A stretch of DNA of 64,000 nucleotides from Candidatus Thorarchaeota archaeon (GCA_016933575.1 JAFGAR010000028.1:1-64000); one strand, 5' to 3'; positions 29,877 through 43,475 are shown, counted from the stretch's first letter. Translations and numbers: made by a program. The notes: a model not told the origin generated them from the sequence alone.

Positions 29877-29895
29877 AAAAAAAGGATGGAAAAAG
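29877..29895 (-). repeat. Inter-gene motif, degenerate copy H
   Basis: Plus AAAAAAAGGATGGAAAAAG after ssb copy 2. Confidence 0.35.
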
Positions 29896-29956
29896 TAAGG
29901 ATATAGCTAGTTCCATCCAATACCATCAAATGTCAATATGGATTCTAAAGAGTTCT

Positions 29957-30340
29957 TTATTGTCCACTGTGTTTTTCTGCAGACATGTCCATTTGCTGAT
30001 TAACATCAGTTATTGGTTCCTCAGCTGAAACAATAGAACCGAACTTGCCAACATGAAGTCTTAGACTACCTTTGAAGAGACTTGCATATCCATTTGTAAG
30101 AAGGTAAGATTCACCTTCCTTCACACTATCAATGGTTTCGTTCCATAGGGGCATTAGGACAGTTCCTGTAGAATCGCCAACCATGGCATCTAATACACGA
30201 TAGGTCTCTTCATCTCTACGTGACTCAACTGATCTTTCTTCGCTAGTGCTCATGACCTTGAAGGTAATGTTGACACTTTTCATTCCGGGCTTAAGCTCGG
30301 CAATTGTAGCCTCAATTGGCTCTCTCTTATTTTCACTCAT
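29957..30340 (-). CDS. ssb: SSB OB-fold paralogue 2 (no Gly tail)
   Basis: Collinear with 147-701, ends at MSAEKH. Confidence 0.85.
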   Translation of the reverse strand: MSENKREPIEATIAELKPGMKSVNITFKVMSTSEERSVESRRDEETYRVLDAMVGDSTGTVLMPLWNETIDSVKEGESYLLTNGYASLFKGSLRLHVGKFGSIVSAEEPITDVNQQMDMSAEKHSGQ

Positions 30341-30500
30341 TGTTTATCACTCGCTATTGCGAATTCAGGTCATTCAAAACTAGGATAGTCCTCACGTGGA
30401 AGTACATGAAGGTCGTAAGTCCTCAATAAAACCAGTCAGAGAAGGTTTGCATAGTTGCTATGCCTGTATATTAAAAGTGCGGGAGTTTGCTTAAGGCATT
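30341..30500 (-). promoter_or_regulatory. Conserved ssb promoter/leader, copy 2
   Basis: Shared blocks with 702-862, 37001-37160 and 19541-19725. Confidence 0.7.
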
Positions 30501-30558
30501 ATGCATAGTGCTGGAAACAACGCTATCTATAACCTTCTGTAATCCTAGAGAGAACCAA

Positions 30559-31472
30559 CTATAGACCAGCTTCGCATATCATCTCTTGAATTCTGAGAGT
30601 ACCTATTCTAGTGAACTTGCGTACTGGATATGATAGTAAAACATCCACAGAATCACAGAAAGAAGTTCCCTTTACTTTTCTAGTAATAGGTCCAGCATCT
30701 CGAAAGTGTTCGGTTACAAACTTTGCAAATAGGACTGGTTCCATAGCTGAATAGAATGAGAACCAGTACTCTGAAGGATAGCTATCCCTAAGCCAAGCAT
30801 CAGCATCTTCCTTGGATGATGTCTTTTCGTTATAATGTATCTTAAGATAGAATTCTGTATTATTGCCCAAACTTAGATTCCATCTTACAGAAAACCAAAA
30901 GGCGTTACTCTCTTGCATCTCTTGGAGTGCTCTATTAACTCTTCTTGAAGTTATGCCAAGTTGTTCAGCAATCTTATTTACCGGCATTCGTGCATCTTCG
31001 AGGAGTTGTTTCAGGACGAGTAAATGAATACGTTTCACAGTAAACTTCTCCCCGCGTTGAATAGGAATTGTATGAAGTTCTAGATGAGTAACATGTTTAT
31101 TTGAGCGAAAGAAAGTAGCTAGCTCTTTTAGATCATGAGCGCTTTCATACTCAACATTCACAAAATACAGACGGTTTGAGCTGGTCACAATTTGGCCAGC
31201 TTGGACAAGGCCAAGAATCGTACCAAAATAATCAATCATCGCTTCTTCGTCTTCTTTTCCATCAGTTTGTACTAAGGCAACAAGATAACTGCAGCCTGTC
31301 ATTTCAGGTCGTAGAAGAACTATGAATTCTTCAATTATGCCACTCTAACCAGATTATTCAATCTCTTTCTAACAGCATTGGGTGATATTCCTAGGTCCAT
31401 CGACATAGCTTGATAGGGCTTTCTACAATTTCTATCCAAAGCAAGGATAATTCCTTTATCAATTGAATCCAC
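30559..31472 (-). pseudogene. Tandem-domain Lrp/AsnC regulator with 1-nt frameshift near 31346
   Basis: N-terminal VDSIDKGIILALDRNCRKPYQ..AVRKRLNNLV continues as SGIIEEFIVLLRPEMTG only after a frame change; paralogue reads RLIDTGVIEEF. Confidence 0.75.
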
Positions 31473-31579
31473 TGCACTCACCTGTGAGGTTCATTTAGGA
31501 AGAGCGAGGCACTAAATAAATTGTCTTCTGTAATCTAGAAGAGGGTAGGAGAATAGAATGTAATCTCGCACATGATAAC

Positions 31580-31628
31580 AAAGAGAGAGAGAGGGATGGA
31601 AGGAGTTCTACTGGCACACTCTTTCAGT
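31580..31628 (-). repeat. Inter-gene motif copy G
   Basis: Plus AAGAGAGAGAGAGGGATGGAAGGAGTTCTACTGGCACACTCTTT. Confidence 0.65.
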
Positions 31629-31738
31629 ATGCACAGCTTTGAACAAAATATCCAATGATACGGTCTCTAACGGGGTTTCGAAGTGAAACCCGTGATTTAT
31701 CCTTGACTGATTATGAAGAATGAACCACTCTCTGCAGA

Positions 31739-32197
31739 TTACCAAAAGCTTGGCATAGGTATTGGAATAATGTAAGGCCAGAGATAGAGAATCAGGAAGA
31801 CGATAATGAATATCGTAATCATTCCAGCAAGAGTCTTTGAGTATCCCTTTGGAATGAGCATATCTTCATAATCTATTTTGCGAACAAGAGGGAAGAGACC
31901 CACATAGAATGTTGCAATAGAGATAATCATTGCAAGTAAAACCCATGGATAAAGATCTGGAGAACCAAAGATAACAATAACTGTAAGCATTGAAAGGAAG
32001 AAGATTTTCGTACCAGCAACCCAGTTAATCAAGTACTTTGCAAAGTCGTTTATTTCGGGATGTGATTTTGACTGTTCCCATGCTTTGAAAGCTCCAATCC
32101 CATTGGCTCTTGTAGAGTCCTTTTTGAAATAGAGCATGAGAACGCTACTTAATTCTAGCATCATGAATACAGCGATTGCAACAACAATGAGACTCAT
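31739..32197 (-). CDS. Hypothetical 4-TM membrane protein
   Basis: Hydrophobic segments; hairpin ACGGGGTTTC-GAAGT-GAAACCCGT at ~31670-31693 downstream. Confidence 0.7.
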   Translation of the reverse strand: MSLIVVAIAVFMMLELSSVLMLYFKKDSTRANGIGAFKAWEQSKSHPEINDFAKYLINWVAGTKIFFLSMLTVIVIFGSPDLYPWVLLAMIISIATFYVGLFPLVRKIDYEDMLIPKGYSKTLAGMITIFIIVFLILYLWPYIIPIPMPSFW

Positions 32198-32424
32198 TCC
32201 TTATCTGTAGATAGTGGCACCATAAATATCTAGTCGTATTATTTGGTATGGATCTATCAAACTATAGTTATTTTTTTTTTGCCTCATCGCAAATTTAAAT
32301 ACCAATGAGCTCTCGTATATTCTAAATTTAGCTAGAGAGATTTCCCCGAAAATAGGGATTGAAGAGATGTATGCTGTTCAAAACATTATACAAGTTCAGA
32401 TTTGTGGGTTGAGAGATTCATTGG

Positions 32425-33378
32425 GTGATTGAGTTGAGTAAGCAGAAGTATATACGTCAGTATAGATGGTCCAACGTCTTGGCAATGATGCAAGGTGGAG
32501 CAAAAGAGCTAAAAGAGTGTACTGATGATTTTAAAGGACGATTAGTTGTTATTACAGGAGCAACATCAGGAATAGGGTATGCAGCCGCAAGAGAGTATGC
32601 TTCACATGGCGCGAATCTTCTTCTCATTAATCGAAGCGAAGAAAAATCAATTGCTCTATGTGACGAGATACGTCAAGAATTTCAAGTAGAATGCGATTAT
32701 AAGATTGCAGATTTTTCGCGATTGACTGAAGTACGTAAAGTGGGAAAGGAAATTCTATACTCAGACCTAGACATCGATGTTCTTATCCATAATGCTGGAA
32801 TTTATTCAACAAAAAAGATAATCACTGAAGATGGTAATGAACTGGTCTTTCAAATAGACTATCTTGGTTCTTTCGTGTTGAACTACATGCTTAAGGACAA
32901 ATTGAAAGCACAAGGAAAAGCGCGTATCATCTTCGTAAACTCAGAAGGTCATCGCTTTGCTGTTTTTGGCATTGGTCTACATGATCCCACCTATGAAAAA
33001 CGTCGACATTCCGGTCTAGGAAGTTATGGTGTTGCGAAAGCAGCCCAACTTCTTTCAATGATAAAATTTGTTGAATATTTTGAGGGTAGCGGAGTTACTA
33101 TTAATGCCATTCATCCAGGAAATGTCAAGACTAATAGTGGTTCACAAAATGGTCGAATATATCGCTGGTATAAGAGAAACTTGATTGATCGTTCAGCGAA
33201 AGACCCACAAATATCTGCAACTGCATTGTATTATCTTGGCGTTTCAAAAGAGATTGAAGGCGTAAGTGGCAAGTTCTTCAATCTCACAAAGGAGGAAGAA
33301 CCTGCGCCTCCATCCTTGGACAGGGAGGTAGCAGAGGAGCTTTGGCATAAATCAATTGAGATGGCGGGATTAGAATGA
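32425..33378 (+). CDS. Short-chain dehydrogenase/reductase (retinol dehydrogenase-like)
   Basis: TGATSGIG, HNAG, YGVAK, HPGNVKT. Confidence 0.9.
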   Translation: MIELSKQKYIRQYRWSNVLAMMQGGAKELKECTDDFKGRLVVITGATSGIGYAAAREYASHGANLLLINRSEEKSIALCDEIRQEFQVECDYKIADFSRLTEVRKVGKEILYSDLDIDVLIHNAGIYSTKKIITEDGNELVFQIDYLGSFVLNYMLKDKLKAQGKARIIFVNSEGHRFAVFGIGLHDPTYEKRRHSGLGSYGVAKAAQLLSMIKFVEYFEGSGVTINAIHPGNVKTNSGSQNGRIYRWYKRNLIDRSAKDPQISATALYYLGVSKEIEGVSGKFFNLTKEEEPAPPSLDREVAEELWHKSIEMAGLE

Positions 33379-34970
33379 GTAAAGACAACCATAGAACAAT
33401 TATTGTCGGCGGCGGAATGTCTGGAATAACCGCTGCAGTTTACTTAGCAAGAGCGGGTCATGATGTTCTCCTACTAGAGAAAAACAAGGAATGCGGCGGA
33501 CTCCTCAATTCATTTCAACGCGAAGGATTCACCTTTGATGCAGGAGCGCGATCAATTCTTAATGCTGGAATAATCCATCCAATGCTTAGAGAACTTGATA
33601 TTGAACTTGAATTTCTTGAAAGTCCAGTATCGATAGGAATCGAGAATGATATTATCAACCTTACGCCTGAGAATGCTGTAGATGAATATCGAAAATTGCT
33701 GGAAAGACTGTATCCAGAGAGTGCAGAGGACATCAAAGTGGTAATCTCAAAAATTGAGAGCATCATGAAAGACATGCAGACGATGTATAAAATTGATAAT
33801 CCAAACTTTCGGGAACAAAAAGATGGAGCCTATCTAAAACAGCTTCTAGGTTGGCTACCTGGATTCATCAGGGTCTTAGGTCGAATGGGCAAACAGAGCG
33901 AACCCGTTGAATCATATTTAGCAAAATTGACTTCAAATCAATCCCTAATTGATATTATAGCCCAGCATTTCTTCAAGAAGACTCCAACCTCGTTTGCCTT
34001 GGGTTACTTCTACTCCTATACTGACTACATCTATCCAAGAGGAGGCACAGGTGAGCTACCAAAAGCCTTGGTGCAGAAAATCATCGAGTTTGGTGGAAAA
34101 ATACAAACTGAAACAGAAATAACTGGAGTCAATCCTTCTGAGAAAGAAGTCAGAGACAAAAATGGTAACACGTATTCGTATGATACACTCATATGGAGTG
34201 CAGATTTAAAGACACTATACAGAATATTAGAATTAAATAATTTTGAAGAAAAGGATTCTCAAGAAATCCTGGAACAAAAGGAACTTCTTCTTTCAAAAAG
34301 AGGCTGTGATTCTGTATATTCATTATTTGTAGGTGTAGATGCACCTCTAGAGGAATTCAGCTCCAAATCAAACGGACATTTCTTCTATACACCATCGAAA
34401 CAAGGTCTTGGCGAAACGCACTGGTCTGAACTTGACTCTTTGATTGAGAATTTTGAAACGAAATCAAAGGATGATATTCTTCAATGGCTGGACAAGTACT
34501 GTCAATTAACAACATACGAAATTTCAATCCCTGCATTTAGAGATCCCACATTGGCTCCTAATGGCAAGACTGGTGTAGAGATAAGCATGCTATTCGAATA
34601 CGATTTGTTGAAGAAGGTTAAAGATGCAAATTGGTATGAAGAATTCCAATCTGAGGTAGAAAACCGTATGTTGGATGTTCTTTCCAATTCCATATATCCA
34701 AGTCTGAGAGATAAAGTACTCTTTCAATCATCATCAACACCACTCAGTATTGCTAAAATTGTAGGGACTTCAGAAGGAGCGATTGTGGGTTGGTCTTATT
34801 TATCACCTGTTCCTGTTGTAGACAATCTCAGAAAAATTCCTAGCTCCGTACTGACACCTATTCCTAATGTGTACCAAACAGGACAATGGGCCTATAGCCC
34901 AGCAGGTTTGCCTACAGCAATTATCACTGGTTGGAATGCTGCTCAGAAGATAATCAAGAAGAAAAAATGA
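33375..34970 (+). CDS. Phytoene desaturase-family FAD-dependent oxidoreductase
   Basis: GGGMSG..AA.YL...G..V.LLEK...GG...SF.REGF.FDAG, YPRGG, STP......GAI.GW, GQW..P.G.P.A..TG. Confidence 0.85.
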   Translation: MSKDNHRTIIVGGGMSGITAAVYLARAGHDVLLLEKNKECGGLLNSFQREGFTFDAGARSILNAGIIHPMLRELDIELEFLESPVSIGIENDIINLTPENAVDEYRKLLERLYPESAEDIKVVISKIESIMKDMQTMYKIDNPNFREQKDGAYLKQLLGWLPGFIRVLGRMGKQSEPVESYLAKLTSNQSLIDIIAQHFFKKTPTSFALGYFYSYTDYIYPRGGTGELPKALVQKIIEFGGKIQTETEITGVNPSEKEVRDKNGNTYSYDTLIWSADLKTLYRILELNNFEEKDSQEILEQKELLLSKRGCDSVYSLFVGVDAPLEEFSSKSNGHFFYTPSKQGLGETHWSELDSLIENFETKSKDDILQWLDKYCQLTTYEISIPAFRDPTLAPNGKTGVEISMLFEYDLLKKVKDANWYEEFQSEVENRMLDVLSNSIYPSLRDKVLFQSSSTPLSIAKIVGTSEGAIVGWSYLSPVPVVDNLRKIPSSVLTPIPNVYQTGQWAYSPAGLPTAIITGWNAAQKIIKKKK

Positions 34971-34991
34971 ACTGAAAATGGAGAGATATTC

Positions 34992-35411
34992 ATGTCTGAA
35001 GTTGACAAACTAAAAAAAGGCGTTGGAAAACGTTTGATTCCTTGGGGAATCCTTAGTATCATAGTTGGACTCATAATGTATTTTGGTCTGCCAAATACAA
35101 TTCTGGGTGGTATTGGTCTTCAGGCACTGATCTGGGGATCAATTGATGTAATCATTGCATTATCCATTATCTATAAACAGAAGGAACAATCAGTCACGAA
35201 AATAGCCAAGACCGTATCAGGTAGTATAAAGGTGGATATTCTCGTTCAGATCATTGGACTTGTCATCATCGTGATATTCTTTCAAAATCCATTCTATATG
35301 GGTAACGGAATCGGAATCATCATTCAGGGATTCTTTCTCCTTCTTCTAGACAGTTCTTACCTGAAATCACTAAGGATTCTTGAAACAAAAATTGGAACTC
35401 AAGACACGTGA
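34992..35411 (+). CDS. Hypothetical 4-TM membrane protein
   Basis: WG..S, G.G.Q..IWG.ID, G.GIIIQG.FL..LD; co-oriented with SDR and desaturase. Confidence 0.7.
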   Translation: MSEVDKLKKGVGKRLIPWGILSIIVGLIMYFGLPNTILGGIGLQALIWGSIDVIIALSIIYKQKEQSVTKIAKTVSGSIKVDILVQIIGLVIIVIFFQNPFYMGNGIGIIIQGFFLLLLDSSYLKSLRILETKIGTQDT

Positions 35412-35425
35412 TTAGGAATTCAAAT

Positions 35426-35461
35426 GAAAAGAAAGAGAGAAGTCCTATATTTCACATAGGT
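35426..35461 (-). terminator. Hairpin plus pyrimidine tract (variant of inter-gene motif)
   Basis: Minus CCTAT-GTGAAAT-ATAGG-ACTTCTCTCTTTCTTTTC. Confidence 0.45.
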
Positions 35462-35472
35462 CAGCTGGTTTA

Positions 35473-35755
35473 TTATTTGCTAACCTTTTTTCGCTGAGCT
35501 GAGAGTCTTTTCATCAAGGCGATTGCATACGAAATTAGTAGCATTGCAAAGTATAACATCGTGATGATTGGGTTTGTGAAATTGGCTCCAATCAGGAAAC
35601 CGTGGACAAAAGCGAAGGTGAGTACAATATACATCAATCCGTGGACGACACGCCAGTACTTTTTCACTCTGTTTCGCAATAACCCAGCGAGTATGGCAAT
35701 ATATACCAAATAGAGTGCAGGTCTTCCAGCTAGGCTCCAGAAGGTATACCATGAC
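35473..35755 (-). pseudogene. 3' half of ferric reductase-like TM gene fused to truncated HEPN
   Basis: SWYTFWSLAGRPALY..KYWR..HG.MY.VLTFAFVHGFLIGANFTNP matches C-half of 11384-12010. Confidence 0.8.
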
Positions 35756-36060
35756 ATTCCTAAGTTTAACAAGCTCGACAAGATTACTACCGAGATTCTT
35801 GTCAGTTACACCATGGTTGGTAATGATTTCAATCGTATCTCTGTAAGTTTCAGGTGTACCCCAATGATGATGTGCTATAAGATGTGTGGCAATATCAATG
35901 ATAGATTGTGTGGCAATCTGAAAACTTCGTTCAATAGCAAGTTGCTAATCCTATTCTTTAGGAAATCTTCCTCTTCTATTGCAGCACCTGTTTTGAGAAG
36001 TTCAATCGAAGTCAGTATCTTGTCAAGCTTCATCTTTACTGATTGCTGGTCAAATGTCAA
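35750..36060 (-). pseudogene. HEPN (HepT-like) toxin pseudogene, frameshifted (~35945) and truncated within the R-x4-H motif
   Basis: IERSFQIATQSIIDIATHLIAHHHWGTPETY..VKLRNVMV aligns to 40125-40541. Confidence 0.8.
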
Positions 36061-36066
36061 AAGTTC

Positions 36067-36468
36067 TCACACTCCAATCGATTGCTTGAGGTAATTGTCG
36101 ATGTAAATATTCCAATCAGGATATCTTATCAAAACGTATTCTACATAAGTTTGCCAAACTTCCGTATCATGCGCATAAAGGACTCTTCCATAATGTAAAA
36201 CTCTAAATTGAAGGGTGAATGAAGCCATGTTCAATAATGTCACATCAATGTGGGGCTCTTCAGATGAGTCAAAAAGTGAAAGGACTTCACCGAATATAGC
36301 AGGATATTGATCTTCACTTTATGATACCCTAAAACCAATATCAATATCGCTTTGTGGATGAGTGGTTCCAGTTGCAGTAGAACCAAAAAGGACAATGAAT
36401 TCCAGATCATCACATAATACTTTTTTAATTCTAGCAACAATCCTTTTGAGCTTCCTGTCCGAACTCAT
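36067..36468 (-). pseudogene. MNT antitoxin pseudogene (in-frame TAA at 36319-36321)
   Basis: FIVLFGSTATGTTHPQSDIDIG..*..IDVTLLN..RYPDW..Y..NYLKQSIG, collinear with 40547-40957. Confidence 0.85.
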
Positions 36469-36546
36469 GCATCTCTTTCTCCCAAAGATTTGTCATTTAA
36501 ACAACATAGAATGTTAACATATAAAGTCGAAGGTAATTCAATCTTC

Positions 36547-36592
36547 AAAAGAAAAAGGGATGGAAAGAGGTGCGATTAACGCATTCTCCTTC
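36547..36592 (-). repeat. Inter-gene motif copy F
   Basis: Plus AAAAGAAAAAGGGATGGAAAGAGGTGCGATTAACGCATTCTCC. Confidence 0.7.
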
Positions 36593-36616
36593 AAATCCAT
36601 GAACATAGTTGTTCGA

Positions 36617-37000
36617 TTATCTGCGATTGTGTTCTTCAGCAGACATATCAATTGTAGAATTTATCTCAACAATTGGGGTTCCAGCTTTTTCAATTGTGCC
36701 AAACTTACCAGATTGAAGTCTTATATTTCCCTTGAAGAGACCTACATATCCATTAGTTAGAGTGTAGGTTTCGCCTTCTTTCAGAGTATCAATAGTTTCA
36801 TTCCAGAATGGCATTTGAATTGTACCTGTAGAATCGCCAACTCTAGCATCCAAGACACGGTGTTTTTGACTGTCACTACGGGATTCGACTGTTCTTTCTT
36901 CACCAGTGCTCATGACCTTGAAGGTTATGTTTACACTTTTCATTCCGGGCTTCAGCTCGGCTATTGTAGCCTCGATGGCTTCGATCTTAAAATCTGTCAT
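36617..37000 (-). CDS. ssb: SSB OB-fold paralogue 3 (no Gly tail)
   Basis: Collinear with 29957-30340. Confidence 0.85.
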   Translation of the reverse strand: MTDFKIEAIEATIAELKPGMKSVNITFKVMSTGEERTVESRSDSQKHRVLDARVGDSTGTIQMPFWNETIDTLKEGETYTLTNGYVGLFKGNIRLQSGKFGTIEKAGTPIVEINSTIDMSAEEHNRR

Positions 37001-37160
37001 AATGTATCACTCGCTCTTGCGAATTCAGGTCATTGAAAACTAGGGTAACTTCATGTGGAAGTACAAGAAGGTCGTTAATCCTCGATAAAACCAGTGTTAA
37101 AAGTTTGCATAGTTATTATGCCTGTACTACCGAGCTGCAGAAGTTTGCTTATAGTGTTAT
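37001..37160 (-). promoter_or_regulatory. Conserved ssb promoter/leader, copy 3
   Basis: Shared blocks; minus-strand TATAAG at ~37147-37152. Confidence 0.7.
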
Positions 37161-37174
37161 GTATCTTGCAGTAG

Positions 37175-37198
37175 GAAAAGAAAGAGGAATGGAAGGAG
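37175..37198 (-). repeat. Inter-gene motif half-copy E
   Basis: AAAAGAAAGAGGAATGGAAGGAG, 23 nt identical to 40077-40099. Confidence 0.75.
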
Positions 37199-37296
37199 AA
37201 AGGAATCAAATCCCACTTGTAAAACTTCTATTATTGAAAACTAAAAACGCCGATTAATTAAAATAAGTAAACAGGTATAGAAAAAGGAGGAGGAGT

Positions 37297-39477
37297 GTGA
37301 TTTTGAAACAGCAAAATACTGTACTCAAGCTATTACTTGTATGCCTATTTCTCAGCTTTTTGTGGTCAAATATTCCAAGTTCAATTCAATTTGGTATATC
37401 GAGTCACATTAACAATCATGAAGATGACGTAAATGAATTCATAGGTTTTGATGGTGCTCTAATCTCAGCTGAAACTGAAGAAATCAAGATATCAAATCCT
37501 ATTTGGCTTAGGACATATGGTCCAAATTGGGCTACCAATAACATCGAAGATATTATCGAATGCGCTGATAGTGGATTTTGTATGTTAGGAACGCTAGGCA
37601 ATCCAAACGATGTAGGTTATTTTCCAGATGCAATTTTGTTGAAAACAGATTCGAATGGAAATCAGCTCTGGAATCGAACATATGGACGAGATGATATGGC
37701 CTACGAGTCGGTTCACAACGTTATCGAATGCTCAAATGGGGATTTCGCTTTTGTGGGATCACAGTATGTGTTGGGTACAGACGAATTTCACAGTGGATGG
37801 TTGGTTCGTGTTAATTCAAGCGGTTTTTTGACTTATAATATTACATATCCAGCTGCGCGCGAGTTAGTAGGAATTTCTGAACTTTCAGATGGAAACTTCT
37901 TCATATGTGGGATAACACCGGGAAGAGATGTTTTCATAATGAGAACAGATGAGAACGGGACCATTAAATGGAGCCTTCCATGGGAGCTATTTCTTGATGA
38001 TGAAGTCACAGATATGATTGAATACAGTCCCGGTGAGTTCATTATAGCAGGATATTCATATGATTCCAGTATGATGGTATGGATACCATTTCTATTCAAG
38101 ATCGACCAAGATTCTATGTTTTCTTGGATTAAATTCTATACACTCCTCGGAAGAGTGTATTGTAACTCAATTCTAAAGCTAGATTCAGGTGGAATCCTGA
38201 TGACAGGAATGGCAGTAACTAGCTCTATCGATTTATGGTTTTGCGAAATTGATGAGAATGGTAATTTCATCCGCGAGGCACGACTGCCTAATGAAATTAA
38301 TTATCCACCTAATGATATCATTCAATTAGAAGAAGGCGGTTTTGCAGTTCTTACTAGTTCTAATAGCATTAATCTTGTTAATGCGCAGTATGAACCAATC
38401 GGTAATATTCGATTCGATTCTATTACAGGTAATTCATTCATTCAGTCTGAAAATAAAGAGTTTGTAATTGGAGGTTCAATGAGAATCGAAAATAACTACA
38501 CTCTGACTATAATCAGAGAACCTTTCCTCTGGTGGAATCATTCTGTTATCAACATCCAAGCAGAATATTTGCAGTCGATTTCCCGTGACTTCAATGCTAC
38601 ATGCAGTCAGGGTATTGATAAGTGGACAGTGAATGCGACTGAGTTCTTTGATATCGATTCAAATGGAGTTCTTGGAAATAATTCAATTTTGAATGTTGGA
38701 ACATATCCTATCAAGATAATTGTGAATGATACTTTAGAAAACACTCTAATACAAGAATTTCTAGTAACAGTAGAAGACACGACTTCACCTGAGTGGGTGC
38801 AAGCTCCAGAAGACCAAATTTTAGAACTTGGTACAGATTTAAACTACTCTCTCTATGCTTTTGATCCATCAGGTATAGGAAGTTGGTCTATCAATGCATC
38901 AGGTCTATTTAGCATTAGTTCTGAGGGAAAAATTAACAATGTTAAGCCATTAGAAATTGGAACCTACGGATTAATGGTTACTGTTGAAGATATCTATGGA
39001 AACGATGTTAACGCTGAATTCACGCTTACAGTTACTGATTCAACTGCTCCGATATGGCTCATCTCTCCAAGCAATATTATAAAGAATGAGGATGAATCTA
39101 TACAGTTTTATTTTGTTGCGAGTGACCTTTCTGGGATAGATGCATGGATTTGTAATGACACTACTAATTTCCAAATTACTGATGAGTCATCGCATGATGC
39201 AAGTTCATGTCTATTTACAAATGCGACCATATTGAATGCTGGGTCCTATGGTCTCAACCTAACTGTAACTGATTTATGGGGTAATAAGATCTCATCAATT
39301 TTCAGAGTTACAATAATTGAGATTCCAGAAATATCTGTATCTACAACGACTACTTCTACATCAACCACATCACAGACATCGGATGAATTTCTTCAACCAG
39401 TTGTACTTCTTGCAGCTGGTTCTGGTTGGATTGCTACAATCTTTGTAATCATCATCATGATGAAACGACGAACCTGA
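37297..39477 (+). CDS. Secreted surface protein: beta-propeller-like repeats, Ig/cadherin-like repeats, C-terminal TM
   Basis: LLKTD.NGN.LW.RTYG repeats, VTVEDTT.P.W repeats, Thr/Ser linker, TM, KRRT. Confidence 0.8.
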   Translation: MILKQQNTVLKLLLVCLFLSFLWSNIPSSIQFGISSHINNHEDDVNEFIGFDGALISAETEEIKISNPIWLRTYGPNWATNNIEDIIECADSGFCMLGTLGNPNDVGYFPDAILLKTDSNGNQLWNRTYGRDDMAYESVHNVIECSNGDFAFVGSQYVLGTDEFHSGWLVRVNSSGFLTYNITYPAARELVGISELSDGNFFICGITPGRDVFIMRTDENGTIKWSLPWELFLDDEVTDMIEYSPGEFIIAGYSYDSSMMVWIPFLFKIDQDSMFSWIKFYTLLGRVYCNSILKLDSGGILMTGMAVTSSIDLWFCEIDENGNFIREARLPNEINYPPNDIIQLEEGGFAVLTSSNSINLVNAQYEPIGNIRFDSITGNSFIQSENKEFVIGGSMRIENNYTLTIIREPFLWWNHSVINIQAEYLQSISRDFNATCSQGIDKWTVNATEFFDIDSNGVLGNNSILNVGTYPIKIIVNDTLENTLIQEFLVTVEDTTSPEWVQAPEDQILELGTDLNYSLYAFDPSGIGSWSINASGLFSISSEGKINNVKPLEIGTYGLMVTVEDIYGNDVNAEFTLTVTDSTAPIWLISPSNIIKNEDESIQFYFVASDLSGIDAWICNDTTNFQITDESSHDASSCLFTNATILNAGSYGLNLTVTDLWGNKISSIFRVTIIEIPEISVSTTTTSTSTTSQTSDEFLQPVVLLAAGSGWIATIFVIIIMMKRRT

Positions 39478-39505
39478 AGATGAAATGAAAATTAGATAAA
39501 AGCAA

Positions 39506-39550
39506 GAGAAGAAAGGGGGATGGAAGGAGTGTGACAATTGCACTCCTTTG
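39506..39550 (-). repeat. Inter-gene motif copy D
   Basis: Plus GAGAAGAAAGGGGGATGGAAGGAGTGTGACAATTGCACTCCTTT; hairpin AAGGAGTG..CACTCCTT. Confidence 0.75.
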
Positions 39551-39555
39551 AAGTA

Positions 39556-39990
39556 TCAAAAAGTCTGTGTAGAGTAAGGACCTCTATACTCCATAAAAAA
39601 GACAATGCCTGCCAAGATTGCCACGACTCCAGCTATGATTGCTGGAGAAGTTGCTATGACTCCTAATGATCCCTCAAGTTGCCCTGCGAACATGAATGCT
39701 ACGAGTATTGTAATGATTCCAAAACACACGCCAAAACAAGGAGTTCCCTGGATTCGTTGGCCTGTGTCTTGTCGAATTTCTACATCACCATAGGAACCTA
39801 CTGTTCTGAAGACTGCCATCATACTCCCACTACGAGCAAACAATGCTCCGATGATCATTACAAAAGCAAAGACTCCGGAAGCCATAGCAGCTATTCCATC
39901 TCCAAATCCCACAATGCTAATTATGAGTTGGATAGTGCAGAGGAAGAATGCAACCACAAAGAGCAATGCACTTTTCATTGAACCAGCCAT
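39556..39990 (-). CDS. Hypothetical 4-TM membrane protein
   Basis: Four hydrophobic helices; RBS GGTGG. Confidence 0.7.
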   Translation of the reverse strand: MAGSMKSALLFVVAFFLCTIQLIISIVGFGDGIAAMASGVFAFVMIIGALFARSGSMMAVFRTVGSYGDVEIRQDTGQRIQGTPCFGVCFGIITILVAFMFAGQLEGSLGVIATSPAIIAGVVAILAGIVFFMEYRGPYSTQTF

Positions 39991-40076
39991 TCAAAAGACC
40001 ACCAATCGTTTTGTACTAAAAAAGAAAAGCTTCCACTCTAATGAATATATTCCTACAAATATATCCCATATAATCT

Positions 40077-40120
40077 AAAAGAAAGAGGAATGGAAGGAGT
40101 GCGACAGGCTCACCTGAGCA
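40077..40120 (-). repeat. Inter-gene motif copy C
   Basis: Plus AAAAGAAAGAGGAATGGAAGGAGTGCGACAGGCTCACCTGAGCA. Confidence 0.75.
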
Positions 40121-40124
40121 GATT

Positions 40125-40541
40125 TCAGATGAACTTCAGAATTGCATCAGCAAACAATTTTGCATCAATGATAATTGCTATTGCACTTTGATATACTATG
40201 GTGGGGTCTACGGCTATATATAGATGAATAAGTATGTTCCTCAGTTTAACAAAATCAATCAATCGGTCTGCGAGGAGAGAATCAATAATCTTGTGATTGG
40301 CAATTATCTTTACAGCATCACTATATGATTTTGGAGACCCCCAATGATTATGTGCTACTAGATGAGTACAGATATCGATAATTGCTTGAGCGATAATCTG
40401 AAGATTCCTCTCTATTGCACCTTGGAGTAGCTCATCTTTCAAATATTGCTCTTGAGTCATAGTTTCAATGTGTTTGATACGAGTGACTCGTTCGAGAATG
40501 ATATCTAATCGTGCTTTCACAACTAAGGGATCTACAGCCAT
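40125..40541 (-). CDS. hepT: HEPN RNase toxin (DUF86/HepT-like, type VII TA)
   Basis: AIERNLQII.QA.IDI..H, intact RNILIHLY (R-x4-H-x-Y); start set at MAVDP. Confidence 0.85.
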   Translation of the reverse strand: MAVDPLVVKARLDIILERVTRIKHIETMTQEQYLKDELLQGAIERNLQIIAQAIIDICTHLVAHNHWGSPKSYSDAVKIIANHKIIDSLLADRLIDFVKLRNILIHLYIAVDPTIVYQSAIAIIIDAKLFADAILKFI

Positions 40542-40546
40542 TGAAA

Positions 40547-40957
40547 TCACGCCCCTAGAGATTGTTTCAAGTAGTTCTGTATGTAGTACTCCCAATCTGG
40601 ATACCTCACAAGAACGTATTCTTGAAAACAGGGCCAAACTTTGTCATTCTTCGTGTATAGAAGTTTACCATCACGAACCACTCTGTACTGAAGTGTGAGA
40701 TCTGCAAGATTAAGAAGAGTAACGTCAATCTTCGGAGAATTCTCCTTATCTACGTAATCAAAGAGGGAGAGCAGATCACCAAAGATTGTCTGCAATTCCT
40801 TCTTCGGATTGCTTACTTGAACGCCAATATCAATATCACTCTGTGGATGGGTATTTCCTGTAGACATAGAACCAAAGAGAACTATGAAGTCAACTTGTTC
40901 ATCAAGTTCATTTCTTATCTGTGTGACGATATCATCTAATAGCTCGTCTTGATTCAA
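40547..40957 (-). CDS. mntA: Minimal nucleotidyltransferase antitoxin (MNT)
   Basis: LFGS.STG..HPQSDIDIG, IDVTLLN; directly upstream of HEPN. Confidence 0.85.
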   Translation of the reverse strand: MNQDELLDDIVTQIRNELDEQVDFIVLFGSMSTGNTHPQSDIDIGVQVSNPKKELQTIFGDLLSLFDYVDKENSPKIDVTLLNLADLTLQYRVVRDGKLLYTKNDKVWPCFQEYVLVRYPDWEYYIQNYLKQSLGA

Positions 40958-41039
40958 AGAGTCACGTTCCTTAGCATTTCATATACAGTAATTGAAATAT
41001 TCTCGCTGCATATAAACTCGAAGGTAATTTGCTTGCTGA

Positions 41040-41083
41040 GAAAAGAAAAGGGAGGGAAGGAGAGTGACAAGCACACCCGAGCA
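41040..41083 (-). repeat. Inter-gene motif copy B
   Basis: Plus AAAAGAAAAGGGAGGGAAGGAGAGTGACAAGCACACCCGAGCA. Confidence 0.75.
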
Positions 41084-41089
41084 ATGTTG

Positions 41090-41659
41090 TCAGACCCGGT
41101 CTATCAATTTCTTTGACTCAGAATCTTTCAGAAATTGCTCAAGTTTATCGAGAATACCTAGCATTTCACATGTGGAGCGTATATACTCAAAATCGAAACT
41201 TTCTGAATTTCTATTTAAAATGCCAAGAGCATCTCTAAGATCTTGCTCTCCTTGAAATAGGATTTTATTAACATAAGTGTCTTCAATAGAACCAATCCTA
41301 ATAGATGTGCCAAATAGATTGACATCGATAGCTCTTTCAAGTGTCATCTTATCAAAAGCTGAATTTACACCTTGTATGTCAAGTCTAAGTAACGTATCCT
41401 TGAAGAAAATAGTACTATGAGATTTCTCTGCGAAAGCTGCTCTGATATCGGTTGCAGAGGATGAAAACCCTCTTGAATTCAGAAATTGTGTGAATGTTGA
41501 AATTTGTTCATCTTCTATTTGCAATATAATGTCAATATCTACGGTAGTTCGAGGGACACCATGGTACATTACTGCTACTCCACCAACGATAACATACTCT
41601 ATCTTATTCTTATTGAGAAATTCACATACTAATTTGAGAATCTCTGGAAATTCTTCCAT
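41090..41659 (-). CDS. Nucleotidyltransferase (AbiEii/DUF6036-like), putative TA component
   Basis: YVIVGGVAV.YHG.PR.T.DID, ED...K....QD..D. Confidence 0.75.
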   Translation of the reverse strand: MEEFPEILKLVCEFLNKNKIEYVIVGGVAVMYHGVPRTTVDIDIILQIEDEQISTFTQFLNSRGFSSSATDIRAAFAEKSHSTIFFKDTLLRLDIQGVNSAFDKMTLERAIDVNLFGTSIRIGSIEDTYVNKILFQGEQDLRDALGILNRNSESFDFEYIRSTCEMLGILDKLEQFLKDSESKKLIDRV

Positions 41660-41812
41660 CTATCTATCACCTGCTATTCGTAGAGCTAACGCAGACAATT
41701 TCAGGCCCATAATTAGTGTTTCAAGACCGGTATATTTTCTAGCTTCGATTGCTGTTCTTATCTGATCGAGGTCTCTCCTGTGCTTCACTTGATCTGCAAT
41801 CGAGCTAGCCAT
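41660..41812 (-). CDS. 50-aa protein abutting the nucleotidyltransferase gene (putative TA partner); missed by ORF track
   Basis: MASSIADQVKHRRDLDQIRTAIEARKYTGLETLIMGLKLSALALRIAGDR*; TAG directly precedes the next ATG. Confidence 0.65.
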   Translation of the reverse strand: MASSIADQVKHRRDLDQIRTAIEARKYTGLETLIMGLKLSALALRIAGDR

Positions 41813-41870
41813 ATCATTCCCACACACCACTAGTAACTACTCTACTCATATATTCTACTATTCATAATTT

Positions 41871-41909
41871 GAAAAGAAAAGGGAGAGAAGGAGTGCGACC
41901 AGCGCACCC
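41871..41909 (-). terminator. vhuU terminator / inter-gene motif copy A
   Basis: Minus GTGCG-CTGGT-CGCAC-TCCTTCTCTCCCTTTTCTTTTC. Confidence 0.7.
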
Positions 41910-41910
41910 T

Positions 41911-41965
41911 TGCGGGGTGTGTCAAGCCCGGCTCAGTTCTTTACGCCGGACCTTCATCCGCCGCC
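41911..41965 (-). promoter_or_regulatory. Eukaryote-type SECIS element overlapping vhuU stop codon
   Basis: RNA GGCGGCGG-AUGA-AGGUCCGGC-GUAAAGAACUGA-GCCGGGCUU-GA-CACACCCCGC: AUGA/GA core, 9-bp helix II, AAA 11 nt after core. Confidence 0.85.
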
Positions 41966-42106
41966 AGTCACGAGCTCCTTCCGGACTATCTCGCGGCCAT
42001 CCTCATCGACAACGACAAGGTGTGCGCCGCATGATAGTCAGCAGTCATAGCACCGAACCACCATTTCCAGGAGGTTCAGTAACCCTTCAGGGATTTCTTC
42101 TGACAT
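41954..42106 (-). CDS. vhuU: Selenoprotein VhuU, split C-terminal Ni-binding peptide of group 3c [NiFeSe] hydrogenase (Sec23 at TGA 42038-42040); missed by ORF track
   Basis: MSEEIPEGLLNLLEMVVRCYDCULSCGAHLVVVDEDGREIVRKELVTGGG*; supplies the L2 motif missing from upstream mvhA; SECIS follows. Confidence 0.92.
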
Positions 42107-42158: not shown

Positions 42159-43475
42159 CTATGTCTTGACCATAGGGTCGGGGAGTTTCAGGCTCTCATG
42201 GGCCTTGTCCTCGAAGATCTGCTTCGCTGCTACCATCAGGCTCTTCTCAATACCAGCGATGTTATTATTTGTCGCCACAATGAGATTTGCCTTCACTAGC
42301 ATTCCCTTATCATCGCTGACGTAGTTGTGCAAGAGAGTCCCTCGTGGAGCCTCTACAACGCCAACGCCTTCGCCAGCCTTGGTTTCGACATCAGCAAGTT
42401 TTACATCGGTGCTTACAATTTCTGGATCTTCAAGAAGAGTCTTGATCCACTCTGCAGCCTGTACCATCTCGACAACCCTAGCATAATGATAAGCAAACAC
42501 ATGATGAGATGGACGACCAATCAGATCACGCATTTCTTTTAGTGCGTCATTTGCAAGTGGAGTAGCCATCTTATCTACTACATTGCATCGAGCAAGAGTG
42601 TTGGTTCTCCAGATACCCTCAGGATATCCTGCGGGTTTGTAGTAGATGTGAGTTGCATAGCTATGCTTCGGGACATGTTCTCCATAATACTCCGTGTAGT
42701 CCTTTGGCTCGAAATCAGCGACAATCTTTCCATCAGGGTCCATAACGCGTATCTTGCCATCATAGATGTCGAGAGCACCTTTGTTATGTAGTCCAATGTA
42801 GTAAGTAGGTGTTACTCCAACTTTTGTTATTACATCAAGATATGCATTAACGACAGTCTTCGCAAGATCCACTGTCTTGTTGATATTCTCCATCAACTCA
42901 GGTACACGACCAAGCCAGTGGTCACGATCTTCCTCGGTCATGGGAGTGAGCTGCCCACCGGGAATTGCTGTGGTTGGATGGATTGCCTTTGCACCGACAG
43001 TCTTGATAATCTCTTGACCAAACTCCATGAGTTTGATAGCCTGCACGGCAACATCTGGAAGATGTTTCAGGACCGCAGCCACATTCCTGACTGCAGGATT
43101 GGCAAATGGGCCAAACACAAAGTCAGGAGCAGCAAGAGCATAGAAGTGGATAGCATGACTTGAGAGCTGCTTTGCCTCAATCATGAGTCTTCTTATCTTT
43201 ACTGCTGCTGGTGGAGGAGTAATATCCCAAGCAGCTTCAACAGCCTTTACTGAGGCAAGATGGTGAGGAATTGGACAGATTCCACAGATTCTCGGAGCGA
43301 TTCGAATAGCCTCCTCCATTGGGCGGCCCTCCAGGAACTTCTCAAAGAATCGAGTAGAGTTTACATTGAATTGTACATCCTTGACCTTTCCATCCTTTCC
43401 TAGTTTCAGCGTGAGTGAACCATGTCCTTCAAGCCTTGTCACTGGGTCGATTCTAATTGTCTTCTCGTCAGTCAT
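42159..43475 (-). CDS. mvhA: F420-non-reducing hydrogenase large subunit lacking the L2 motif (VhuA type)
   Basis: PVTRLEGH, RICGICPIPHH, EAPRGTL.H.Y, N.IVAT..N; no DPCxxC. Confidence 0.95.
   Translation of the reverse strand: MTDEKTIRIDPVTRLEGHGSLTLKLGKDGKVKDVQFNVNSTRFFEKFLEGRPMEEAIRIAPRICGICPIPHHLASVKAVEAAWDITPPPAAVKIRRLMIEAKQLSSHAIHFYALAAPDFVFGPFANPAVRNVAAVLKHLPDVAVQAIKLMEFGQEIIKTVGAKAIHPTTAIPGGQLTPMTEEDRDHWLGRVPELMENINKTVDLAKTVVNAYLDVITKVGVTPTYYIGLHNKGALDIYDGKIRVMDPDGKIVADFEPKDYTEYYGEHVPKHSYATHIYYKPAGYPEGIWRTNTLARCNVVDKMATPLANDALKEMRDLIGRPSHHVFAYHYARVVEMVQAAEWIKTLLEDPEIVSTDVKLADVETKAGEGVGVVEAPRGTLLHNYVSDDKGMLVKANLIVATNNNIAGIEKSLMVAAKQIFEDKAHESLKLPDPMVKT

Follow-up and report, generated by a model that had tools for sequence, protein, structure and literature searches.

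Gene modules separated by partial copies of a SECIS-bearing gene end form an array downstream of vhuU in Thorarchaeota

We analyzed a 64,000-nt stretch of DNA from a Candidatus Thorarchaeota archaeon (GCA_016933575.1 JAFGAR010000028.1:1-64000; hereinafter the window), which corresponds to the initial 64 kb of a 296-kb contig from a metagenome-assembled genome (MAG) of 3.47 Mb (215 contigs, 42% GC, 85.5% complete), and in particular the array of small gene modules that lies downstream of the selenoprotein gene vhuU and is punctuated by copies of a repeat denoted R. The conserved anchor of the locus is the gene for a vhuA-type [NiFeSe] hydrogenase large subunit without the C-terminal end (438 aa; 42159..43475, minus strand; Pfam NiFeSe_Hases), homologues of which, 58-90% identical, are present in 79 Asgard loci, nearly all from Thorarchaeota MAGs, with the more distant ones belonging to other Asgard lineages. 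Next to it lies vhuU (41954..42106, minus strand), recognized from the sequence and its translation with TGA read as U, with 50 codons, an in-frame selenocysteine (Sec) TGA at 42038-42040 and the stop TGA at 41954-41956; it agrees with the Asgard VhuU selenoproteins already published (PMC11227280). The same genome encodes a second vhuA-type gene (contig C57, 234506-235813; 70% identical) with neither vhuU nor R behind it in this assembly and, therefore, no second array is available for comparison; the equivalent paralogue in relatives (e.g., L045 and L046; L numbers denote loci compared here) has both vhuU and R behind it.

R is a repeat of ~175 nt that consists of the coding tail of vhuU, followed by a eukaryote-like selenocysteine insertion signal (SECIS), the AUGA of which overlaps the vhuU stop codon in the native repeat, and then by a C/T-rich tract. 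Our model of R has 177 positions (m1-177) and starts just after the Sec codon. The native full repeat of the window, R1 (41862..42038, minus strand), matches this model over m1-177 (nhmmer, E 2.8e-50) and is predicted to fold with -49.4 kcal/mol (RNAfold, z -2.7), with CGCTGGTCGCACTCCTTC as the 3' strand of the basal stem. Both the 46 native copies analyzed together with RNAalifold and the window copy analyzed with RNAfold fold as a single long hairpin; in the RNAalifold structure, the coding tail GGAAGGAGCTnGTGACnGGCG is paired with CGCTGGTCGCACTCCTTCC, with compensatory changes in 13 of the 23 pairs. The Asgard eukaryote-like SECIS (eSECIS) elements are characterized by an AUGA_GA core, an upper stem of 7-15 bp, an A-rich apical loop (G[U/G]AAA for the Thorarchaeia frhA/vhuU genes) and a location directly after a gene with an in-frame UGA (PMC11227280). 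R1 displays these Asgard eSECIS-like features, with an upper stem of ~10 bp that shows covariation and the apical loop GUAAA, and is the only such copy in the window; in R2 to R8, the AUGA side is absent.

In the relatives, R also lies directly behind vhuU, 210-250 nt past the end of vhuA, and its identity across the Thorarchaeota family is 75-90%, the two best-conserved blocks being the coding tail with the stop codon (m51-88) and GTCRCACTCCTTCCATCC with the tract (m141-165). R is an imperfect inverted repeat with the conserved boxes GGAAGGAGCT.GTGAC and GTCRCACTCCTTCC, and contains no GTTRRRY. Searches of Rfam at the gathering threshold, and also at E<=1, yielded no match for R, the native SECIS included. 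A likeness of CACCTCCTT to the 3' end of 16S rRNA was considered and dropped, as the extra C varies between the native sequence types.

A preliminary description, made from the nucleotide sequence of the window alone, had reported about eight same-orientation copies of a short motif and proposed that a terminator-like sequence doubles as a recurrent insertion or recombination site, building an integron-like array. Because native R folds as a single long hairpin, this motif can be identified as the 3' strand of the SECIS basal stem together with the C/T-rich tract. It is thus only the distal ~45 nt of R, and the full repeat unit is longer and starts within the vhuU coding sequence. A short profile of the motif, made from the window copies themselves and run with nhmmer over the 3.47-Mb genome, detects six minus-strand copies at E values of 8e-10 to 1e-7 (41867-41917, 41035-41088, 40074-40125, 39503-39554, 36543-36594, and 31579-31631) and a half copy (37173-37221) at E 4e-4, with no significant match in the genome beyond these seven copies of this locus (next best, E 0.23). 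Seven of the eight reported copies are accordingly significant, and the eighth, at 29877, is recognizable only by its position and its alignment with R6. The consensus of the motif, as originally written, has 3 IUPAC matches vs. 0 in 100 shuffles, and matches to its 12-nt core elsewhere in the genome are not accompanied by the flanking purine tract and hairpin.

All secondary copies of the window are on the minus strand. R2 (41032..41110) is a partial copy (m98-176; long model, E 5.6e-12); R3 (40074..40125) is a distal copy (m124-171; short model, E 7.9e-10; long model, E 9e-4); R4 (39503..39554) is a distal copy with its own hairpin AAGGAGTG...CACTCCTT (E 1.1e-8; fold z -2.4); R5 (37173..37221) is a half copy that includes only the C/T-rich tract (E 4.1e-4); R6 (36543..36594) is a mini hairpin (GAAGGAG..TGCG / CGCA..CTCTTTC) followed by a T-rich tract (E 9.2e-8; -17.9 kcal/mol, z -3.3); and R7 (31579..31631) is a distal copy (m124-167; E 2.2e-9). 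The degenerate remnant R8 (29877..29925; nhmmer not significant) aligns with R6 and lies behind the second Ssb paralogue in the same manner as R6 lies behind the first. The decay of the copies with distance from vhuU, already noticed in the preliminary description, is apparent from the long-model scores, which drop from 171 to 46 and 19 bits and then to about 10-15. The separate hairpin reported ahead of R7 is likewise present, as a perfect 8-bp palindrome (GGGTTTCG AAG TGAAACCC, 31673-31691) between the 152-aa gene and R7 that is distinct from the repeat. The long R model additionally picks up partial copies on two small contigs of the same genome (loci L081 and L082), namely an orphan between an LRR-protein gene and a 101-aa open reading frame (ORF) (C22:12641-12742) and a copy behind a nucleotidyltransferase-family gene on a 2-kb contig (C93:1570-1699); the latter could represent either a strain variant or part of another array.

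The units between the copies contain the kinds of genes named in the preliminary description, namely toxin-antitoxin pairs, ssb, regulators and membrane or surface protein genes, as established with Pfam. Cassette 1 (41090..41830, minus strand; Pfam, PADLOC) encompasses a 56-aa ORF and a DUF6036/AbiEii-like nucleotidyltransferase (189 aa). In >25 loci, R copies flank this module, the array position of which ranges from 1 to 5; it always lies 10-15 nt behind the R tract, is succeeded by another R and invariably contains, about 10-15 nt past R, the conserved TATA-like box ATAGTAGAATATATGAG. Cassette 2 (40125..40957, minus strand) is a toxin-antitoxin pair of MNT (136 aa; Pfam Polbeta/NTP_transf_2) and HepT (170 aa; HepT-like), found again in L003, L018, L019, L056, L103, L104, and L105. 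Cassette 3 (39556..39990, minus strand) encodes a 144-aa protein with no Pfam or NCBIfam match, the gene for which is R-flanked in L096. Cassette 4 (37297..39477, plus strand) is inverted and encodes a 726-aa surface protein with a weak Pfam match to Big_13; it is bracketed by the half copy R5 and by R4, as the preliminary description had stated, and its relatives are R-flanked in L102, L104, and L106. Cassette 5 (36617..37169, minus strand) consists of a conserved ~170-nt leader and an Ssb-like OB-fold gene (127 aa; Pfam Ssb-like_OB), a family that is the second commonest in the arrays; about 550 nt of this cassette are duplicated at 29957-30511.

Behind R6, cassette 6 (35741..36468, minus strand) contains a second MNT/HepT pair (tblastn, 53% and 38% identity to cassette 2), the translation of which reveals pseudogenes broken by in-frame stops; it is a decaying toxin-antitoxin module inside the array. 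Farther away from vhuU, a block of DUF6992, amine oxidase and SDR genes (plus strand) and the 152-aa gene (minus strand) (31739..35411; Pfam) is found again beyond the arrays of L001, L021, L025, L030, L039, L043, L092, and L101. The distal unit (29957..31302, minus strand; Pfam) consists of a helix-turn-helix (HTH) regulator (247 aa) followed by the leader and a second Ssb-like OB gene (127 aa). The two Ssb leaders (30341-30511 and 37001-37169, minus strand) are 82-89% identical, compared to 72-84% for the coding regions, and metagenome contigs as well as L031 likewise contain the ~170-nt leader after R; the leader might function as a regulatory RNA or represent a long 5' untranslated region. 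The Ssb-like OB gene has about seven close paralogues in the same genome. A role for the SECIS copies in decoding downstream selenoprotein genes was considered and rejected, as the modules are toxin-antitoxin, Ssb and regulator genes and the window copies do not contain the AUGA side.

Extra copies of R were detected in 20 of the 60 loci with a native R, within the downstream sequence examined. All 34 secondary copies are located downstream of vhuU and are co-oriented with it, and none was found in the upstream flanks of up to 10 kb of the 60 loci. A BLAST survey of 81 genomes of the family revealed one full copy and partial copies on the same contig and strand, with clear cases in at least three genera, and 15 metagenome contigs picked by pattern carry up to seven co-oriented copies each. 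The distance that separates the copies is 482-9334 nt (median near 1.1 kb). Side-by-side alignment demonstrates that the downstream copies of relatives are much longer than those of the window, extending from the last ~60 nt of the vhuU frame through the stop codon and on to the T-rich tract; such long copies with vhuU coding sequence and SECIS are found in L002 (9854-10003 and 10431-10567) and L043 (6167-6321), and also in L021, L025, and L063. The presence of vhuU coding sequence and SECIS remnants in the copies of relatives implies that these are homologous duplicates rather than convergent signals. The secondary copies share a common right end (about m170), with the left end anywhere from m20 to m136. 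The pairing of CTCCTTCC in the secondary copies is no better than that with shuffled upstream sequence (4.2 vs. 4.0 of 10 bases) and, therefore, we do not claim that the basal stem is conserved in all of them, but only the small GTGYG/CRCAC hairpin and several clear mini hairpins.

These observations bear directly on the explanation that the motif is an ordinary terminator of this lineage that happens to follow several genes here. A hairpin with a pyrimidine/T-rich tract behind the stop codons of co-oriented genes is indeed what such a terminator would look like; however, the short profile located the motif at no other place in the genome, some copies follow inverted genes, and relatives do not preserve the gene order. 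Rather than simply the terminator-like sequence of the preliminary description, the repeat is a segment of the vhuU 3' end, SECIS domain included, that has been duplicated, and we consider the terminator explanation refuted, for practical purposes, by the search of the whole genome and by the vhuU sequence that the copies contain. A scan with bacterial-type terminator and promoter models left the copies unscored and gave the same site counts as shuffled sequence, the bacterial model being uninformative for an archaeon.

Among the array ORFs, 48 of 71 are co-oriented with vhuU, and about a third are inverted. The gene content behind vhuU varies widely between relatives and is drawn from a limited set of recurring module families, among which the DUF6036/AbiEii-like nucleotidyltransferases (11 of 45 proteins) and the Ssb-like OB fold (5 of 45) are joined by MNT/HepT, HTH regulators, S8 peptidase, alpha/beta hydrolase and a Hachiman-like helicase pair. 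The latter, a strong HamB helicase match with its partner, is encoded in a single unit of L045 (11687-15599), which indicates that the arrays carry defense systems besides toxin-antitoxin pairs. In L103 (10019-12100), two MNT/HepT modules are arranged head to head around a nearly full R (m8-175), and the inversion of one of them suggests that modules are able to enter in either orientation. In L001 (8356-8415), a degenerate R fragment lies 26 nt past the native R with no gene between them, resembling an 'empty' unit that would not be expected from simple repeat-to-repeat deletion.

Several lines of evidence indicate that the modules move. The order in L021 is R-hydrolase-R-806aa-R-peptidase, whereas in its close relative L025 it is R-806aa-R-hydrolase-R-peptidase, and module families occupy differing array positions in the window, L096, L101, L102, L104, and L105. 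A contig from metagenome run X2 joins the 144-aa gene straight to the native R (joint 39990<->41882), contigs from other samples also join the native R directly to the Ssb leader, and a further run X2 contig contains the 152-aa gene, an R copy and the Ssb leader without the 247-aa HTH gene (joint 30620<->31727). The finding of the same modules in other orders in relatives shows that the locus is a genuine gene-shuffling hotspot. Furthermore, nearest-neighbor analysis shows that secondary copies often bear the sequence type native to other lineages, as does the second copy in L002, and that the sequence type of R2 of the window is that of the native R of L036, L039, and L002. The SECIS part of the native copies is itself mosaic with respect to the coding tail, L021 and L031 differing from L025, L013, and L027. 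Taken together, the variable content and order, the foreign-type copies and the mosaic SECIS imply transfer between lineages along with R. The part of the preliminary description that posited a recurrent recombination or insertion site building a cassette-like array behind vhuU is thus borne out: the motif is restricted to this locus rather than being equally dense across the genome, and gene order, as illustrated by the swap between L021 and L025, is variable rather than conserved in relatives.

The repeat copies that duplicate the 3' end of their target gene, with vhuU coding tail, stop codon, SECIS and tract all represented in secondary copies, raise the question of whether the array is what remains of a series of classical integrative elements (viruses or plasmids with an integrase of their own) that used the vhuU 3' end as an attachment site, as tRNA genes are used elsewhere, and later lost their integrases and most of their genes. 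The direct repeats with constant right and variable left ends are an attL/attR signature, and the decay of the copies with distance from vhuU fits such a history. Nevertheless, no integrase, replication or virion gene was found among the 45 array proteins profiled and the other cluster representatives tested, the R block-1 pattern had no match in 2.9 million viral contigs, and decay would not be expected to yield discrete modules, mostly of 0.5-1.2 kb, that recur in new orders; this scenario therefore appears quite improbable to us. Nine viral matches of a 19-mer from block 2 were discarded as chance matches, all of them falling within one GC-rich phage ORF with no other features of R.

The positions of the crossovers, counted relative to the C of CTCC, provide further information on the process. 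In L021 and L025, every R is a hybrid: its coding-tail part accompanies the module upstream, and everything from the stop codon or from CTCCTTCC on accompanies the module downstream. When pairs of genomes share vhuU and differ in the first module, homology ends 14-23 nt after CTCC in 35 of the 71 (non-independent) pairs; when the same module is compared in different contexts, 13 of 21 pairs gain homology 2-17 nt before CTCC, 3 at the R left end and another 3 immediately past R. The overlap of the vhuU-side and the module-side homology coincides with the distal 40-nt motif. Most junctions fall in this core, with others in the block of the coding tail and stop codon or at the R left end, and the distal part of R is probably the commonest crossover zone. 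For R5, compared with the R that precedes the Ssb cassette in L031, homology begins only 34 nt after CTCC, past the C/T tract common to all copies. The conserved blocks m51-88 and m141-165 coincide with the clusters of junctions, which agrees with, although it does not prove, a hotspot of homologous recombination. The crossovers do not appear to be confined to one fixed nucleotide, for which homologous recombination is an explanation no worse than a site-specific enzyme.

The exact overlap of left-side and right-side homology on the 40-nt core could also be read as the footprint of a true integron analogue, in which an unrecognized site-specific recombinase encoded elsewhere would act on the folded or duplex distal core (hairpin plus CTCCTTCCATCC), as IntI acts on attC, inserting, excising and shuffling modules. 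Such an analogue would account for the many orders in which modules of 0.5-1.2 kb, delimited by a well-conserved 40-nt core, occur, for a content rich in toxin-antitoxin and defense genes like that of chromosomal integrons, and for the structure of the full R, a long imperfect inverted repeat with a variable center, both arms of which several old copies retain as a mini hairpin. It is more difficult to reconcile with the crossovers at the stop codon or the R left end, the lack of an attC-type GTTRRRY box, the TATA-like box of the nucleotidyltransferase module and the inversion of about a third of the array genes. The search for a recombinase adds to these difficulties. No recombinase or transposase domain was found in the ORFs tested in positions 1-45 kb of the window, every long ORF included, and no recombinase domain was found among the array genes tested in relatives. 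In agreement with the preliminary description, which had seen no integrase, the search for Xer/IntI-type enzymes gave one weak Xer-like gene in the genome, on a separate 1.4-kb contig, and none near the arrays. No match to PF00589 was found in 11 of the 17 array-bearing genomes, and none near the array in any of the 17, and serine recombinases (PF00239) and Y1 transposases (PF01797) are essentially absent from the five genomes checked. What survives of the label integron-like is accordingly the architecture, and we regard a true integron analogue as unlikely. In this family, a Phage_integrase-type tyrosine recombinase is present in only 29 of 81 genomes, in a survey that spans several genomes that are >95% complete, and the group may either lack a XerA-type enzyme or have a highly diverged one.

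Given the negative recombinase searches and the evidence from the R copies, we favor, with moderate confidence, the hypothesis that the array behind vhuU was built by module exchange through homologous recombination between R copies. R would serve as a portable stretch of homology, such that DNA with an R copy could recombine with the resident copy: a single crossover could integrate a fragment or circle with R, the alternative being a double crossover in the two conserved blocks. Each event would add a module with its own promoter and leave a further partial R behind, so that the array would grow downstream of vhuU. R-R recombination within an array or between genomes could subsequently delete, reorder and exchange modules, the direct repeats permitting deletion and reinsertion. 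The SECIS would be needed only in the vhuU-adjacent copy, and the other copies would lose its top while keeping the basal hairpin and the C/T-rich tract, which probably still terminate transcription between the modules. The enzyme would be the homologous-recombination machinery of the cell, presumably with the involvement of circular intermediates or double crossovers.

Several observations weigh against this hypothesis. With a length of just 40-50 nt and a similarity of about 85%, many secondary copies are short substrates for homologous recombination, yet the modules that they bound are found in different orders. The 40-nt distal core is kept better (0.85) than the rest of R in secondary copies, including those behind inverted genes, where it is unable to terminate any upstream gene; such conservation would also suit a protein recognition site. 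The left ends of the secondary copies are somewhat clustered (m20-25, m35-45, and m78-81). No excised circles, population-level junction reads or transcript ends were seen in the assembled Logan contigs, the genomes are incomplete MAGs that leave room for a recombinase encoded elsewhere or belonging to a new family, and the hypothesis does not cover the first R duplication. Two joints initially considered as candidate circles ('goes back 822' and '41101->41951') were rejected, as they come from relatives with another R sequence type or a more complete R. With these points in mind, it is conceivable, albeit doubtful, that Thorarchaeota possess a gene-capture platform of their own, in which the folded SECIS/terminator domain of vhuU would take the part of attC/attI and a recombinase of a new kind, or a hairpin-specific housekeeping activity, would move promoter-bearing modules at the 40-nt core.

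In these archaea, one fixed chromosomal site in at least three genera, represented by dozens of genomes along with metagenome contigs, gathers and reorders toxin-antitoxin, defense, surface and regulatory modules without a recognizable mobile-element enzyme. The constraint imposed by the SECIS keeps about 150 nt nearly constant across the family, a new side effect of a recoding signal, and it is apparently this constancy of R that enables recombination with DNA from other lineages. From a practical standpoint, copies of R are a simple marker for finding such arrays, and they indicate where insertions would likely be tolerated if these archaea become genetically tractable.

The vhuU array shares features with several known systems. 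Archaeal and bacterial islands at the 3' ends of tRNA and tmRNA genes grow by tandem accretion at a conserved target that encodes a structured RNA, the incoming DNA restoring the 3' end and displacing the old one; they leave partial copies with a constant 3' boundary, encode their own integrase and are much larger. The vhuU array, by contrast, targets a protein-coding gene at its SECIS-bearing 3' end. The 'minimal mobile elements' of Neisseria are exchanged via conserved flanks, with no dedicated recombinase known to be involved, so that different strains carry different genes at the same site, but they are not known to build internal repeat arrays copied from the flanking gene. Staphylococcal cassette chromosome (SCC) elements stand in tandem behind one conserved gene, with direct repeats that include the 3' end of that gene, and some units are without a recombinase; they are mobilized by Ccr serine recombinases, with repeats of about 15-20 nt and units of kilobases to tens of kilobases. 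Compared to the tandem SCC and pseudo-SCC composite islands at the 3' end of staphylococcal rlmH (orfX) (PMC6243372, PMC7029136), the vhuU array shows no recombinase, has repeats of up to 150 nt and consists of units that mostly measure about 1 kb.

Integrons and CALINs (clusters of attC sites without an integrase), including the archaeal integrons (PMC4889954, PMC9668308), resemble the vhuU array in the one-directional arrangement of small modules, the repeated hairpin-forming site and the single fixed end, as well as in the differences of module order and content between close relatives and the abundance of toxin-antitoxin modules. The attC sites of integrons are imperfect palindromes with R''/L''...L'/R' boxes and a GTTRRRY core, and integron cassettes mostly have no promoters of their own, share one orientation and are transcribed from a common promoter. 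Unlike integrons, the vhuU array has no IntI and no attC boxes, about a third of its genes are inverted, its crossovers do not appear to occur at one point, its repeat derives from the 3' end of the neighboring host gene, and its nucleotidyltransferase module has a TATA-like box. With regard to the Asgard eukaryote-like SECIS of VhuU (PMC4989117, PMC11227280), the native R1 is this very element, and the secondary copies of the window have lost the SECIS core. In the literature searched, we came across neither duplicates of a SECIS or vhuU 3' end nor an array that follows vhuU. What sets the array apart is the use of a SECIS-bearing gene end as the anchor, its spread across Thorarchaeota and the operation of the array with no dedicated enzyme found; in other respects, the vhuU array is a variant of the known themes of insertion hotspots and cassette arrays.

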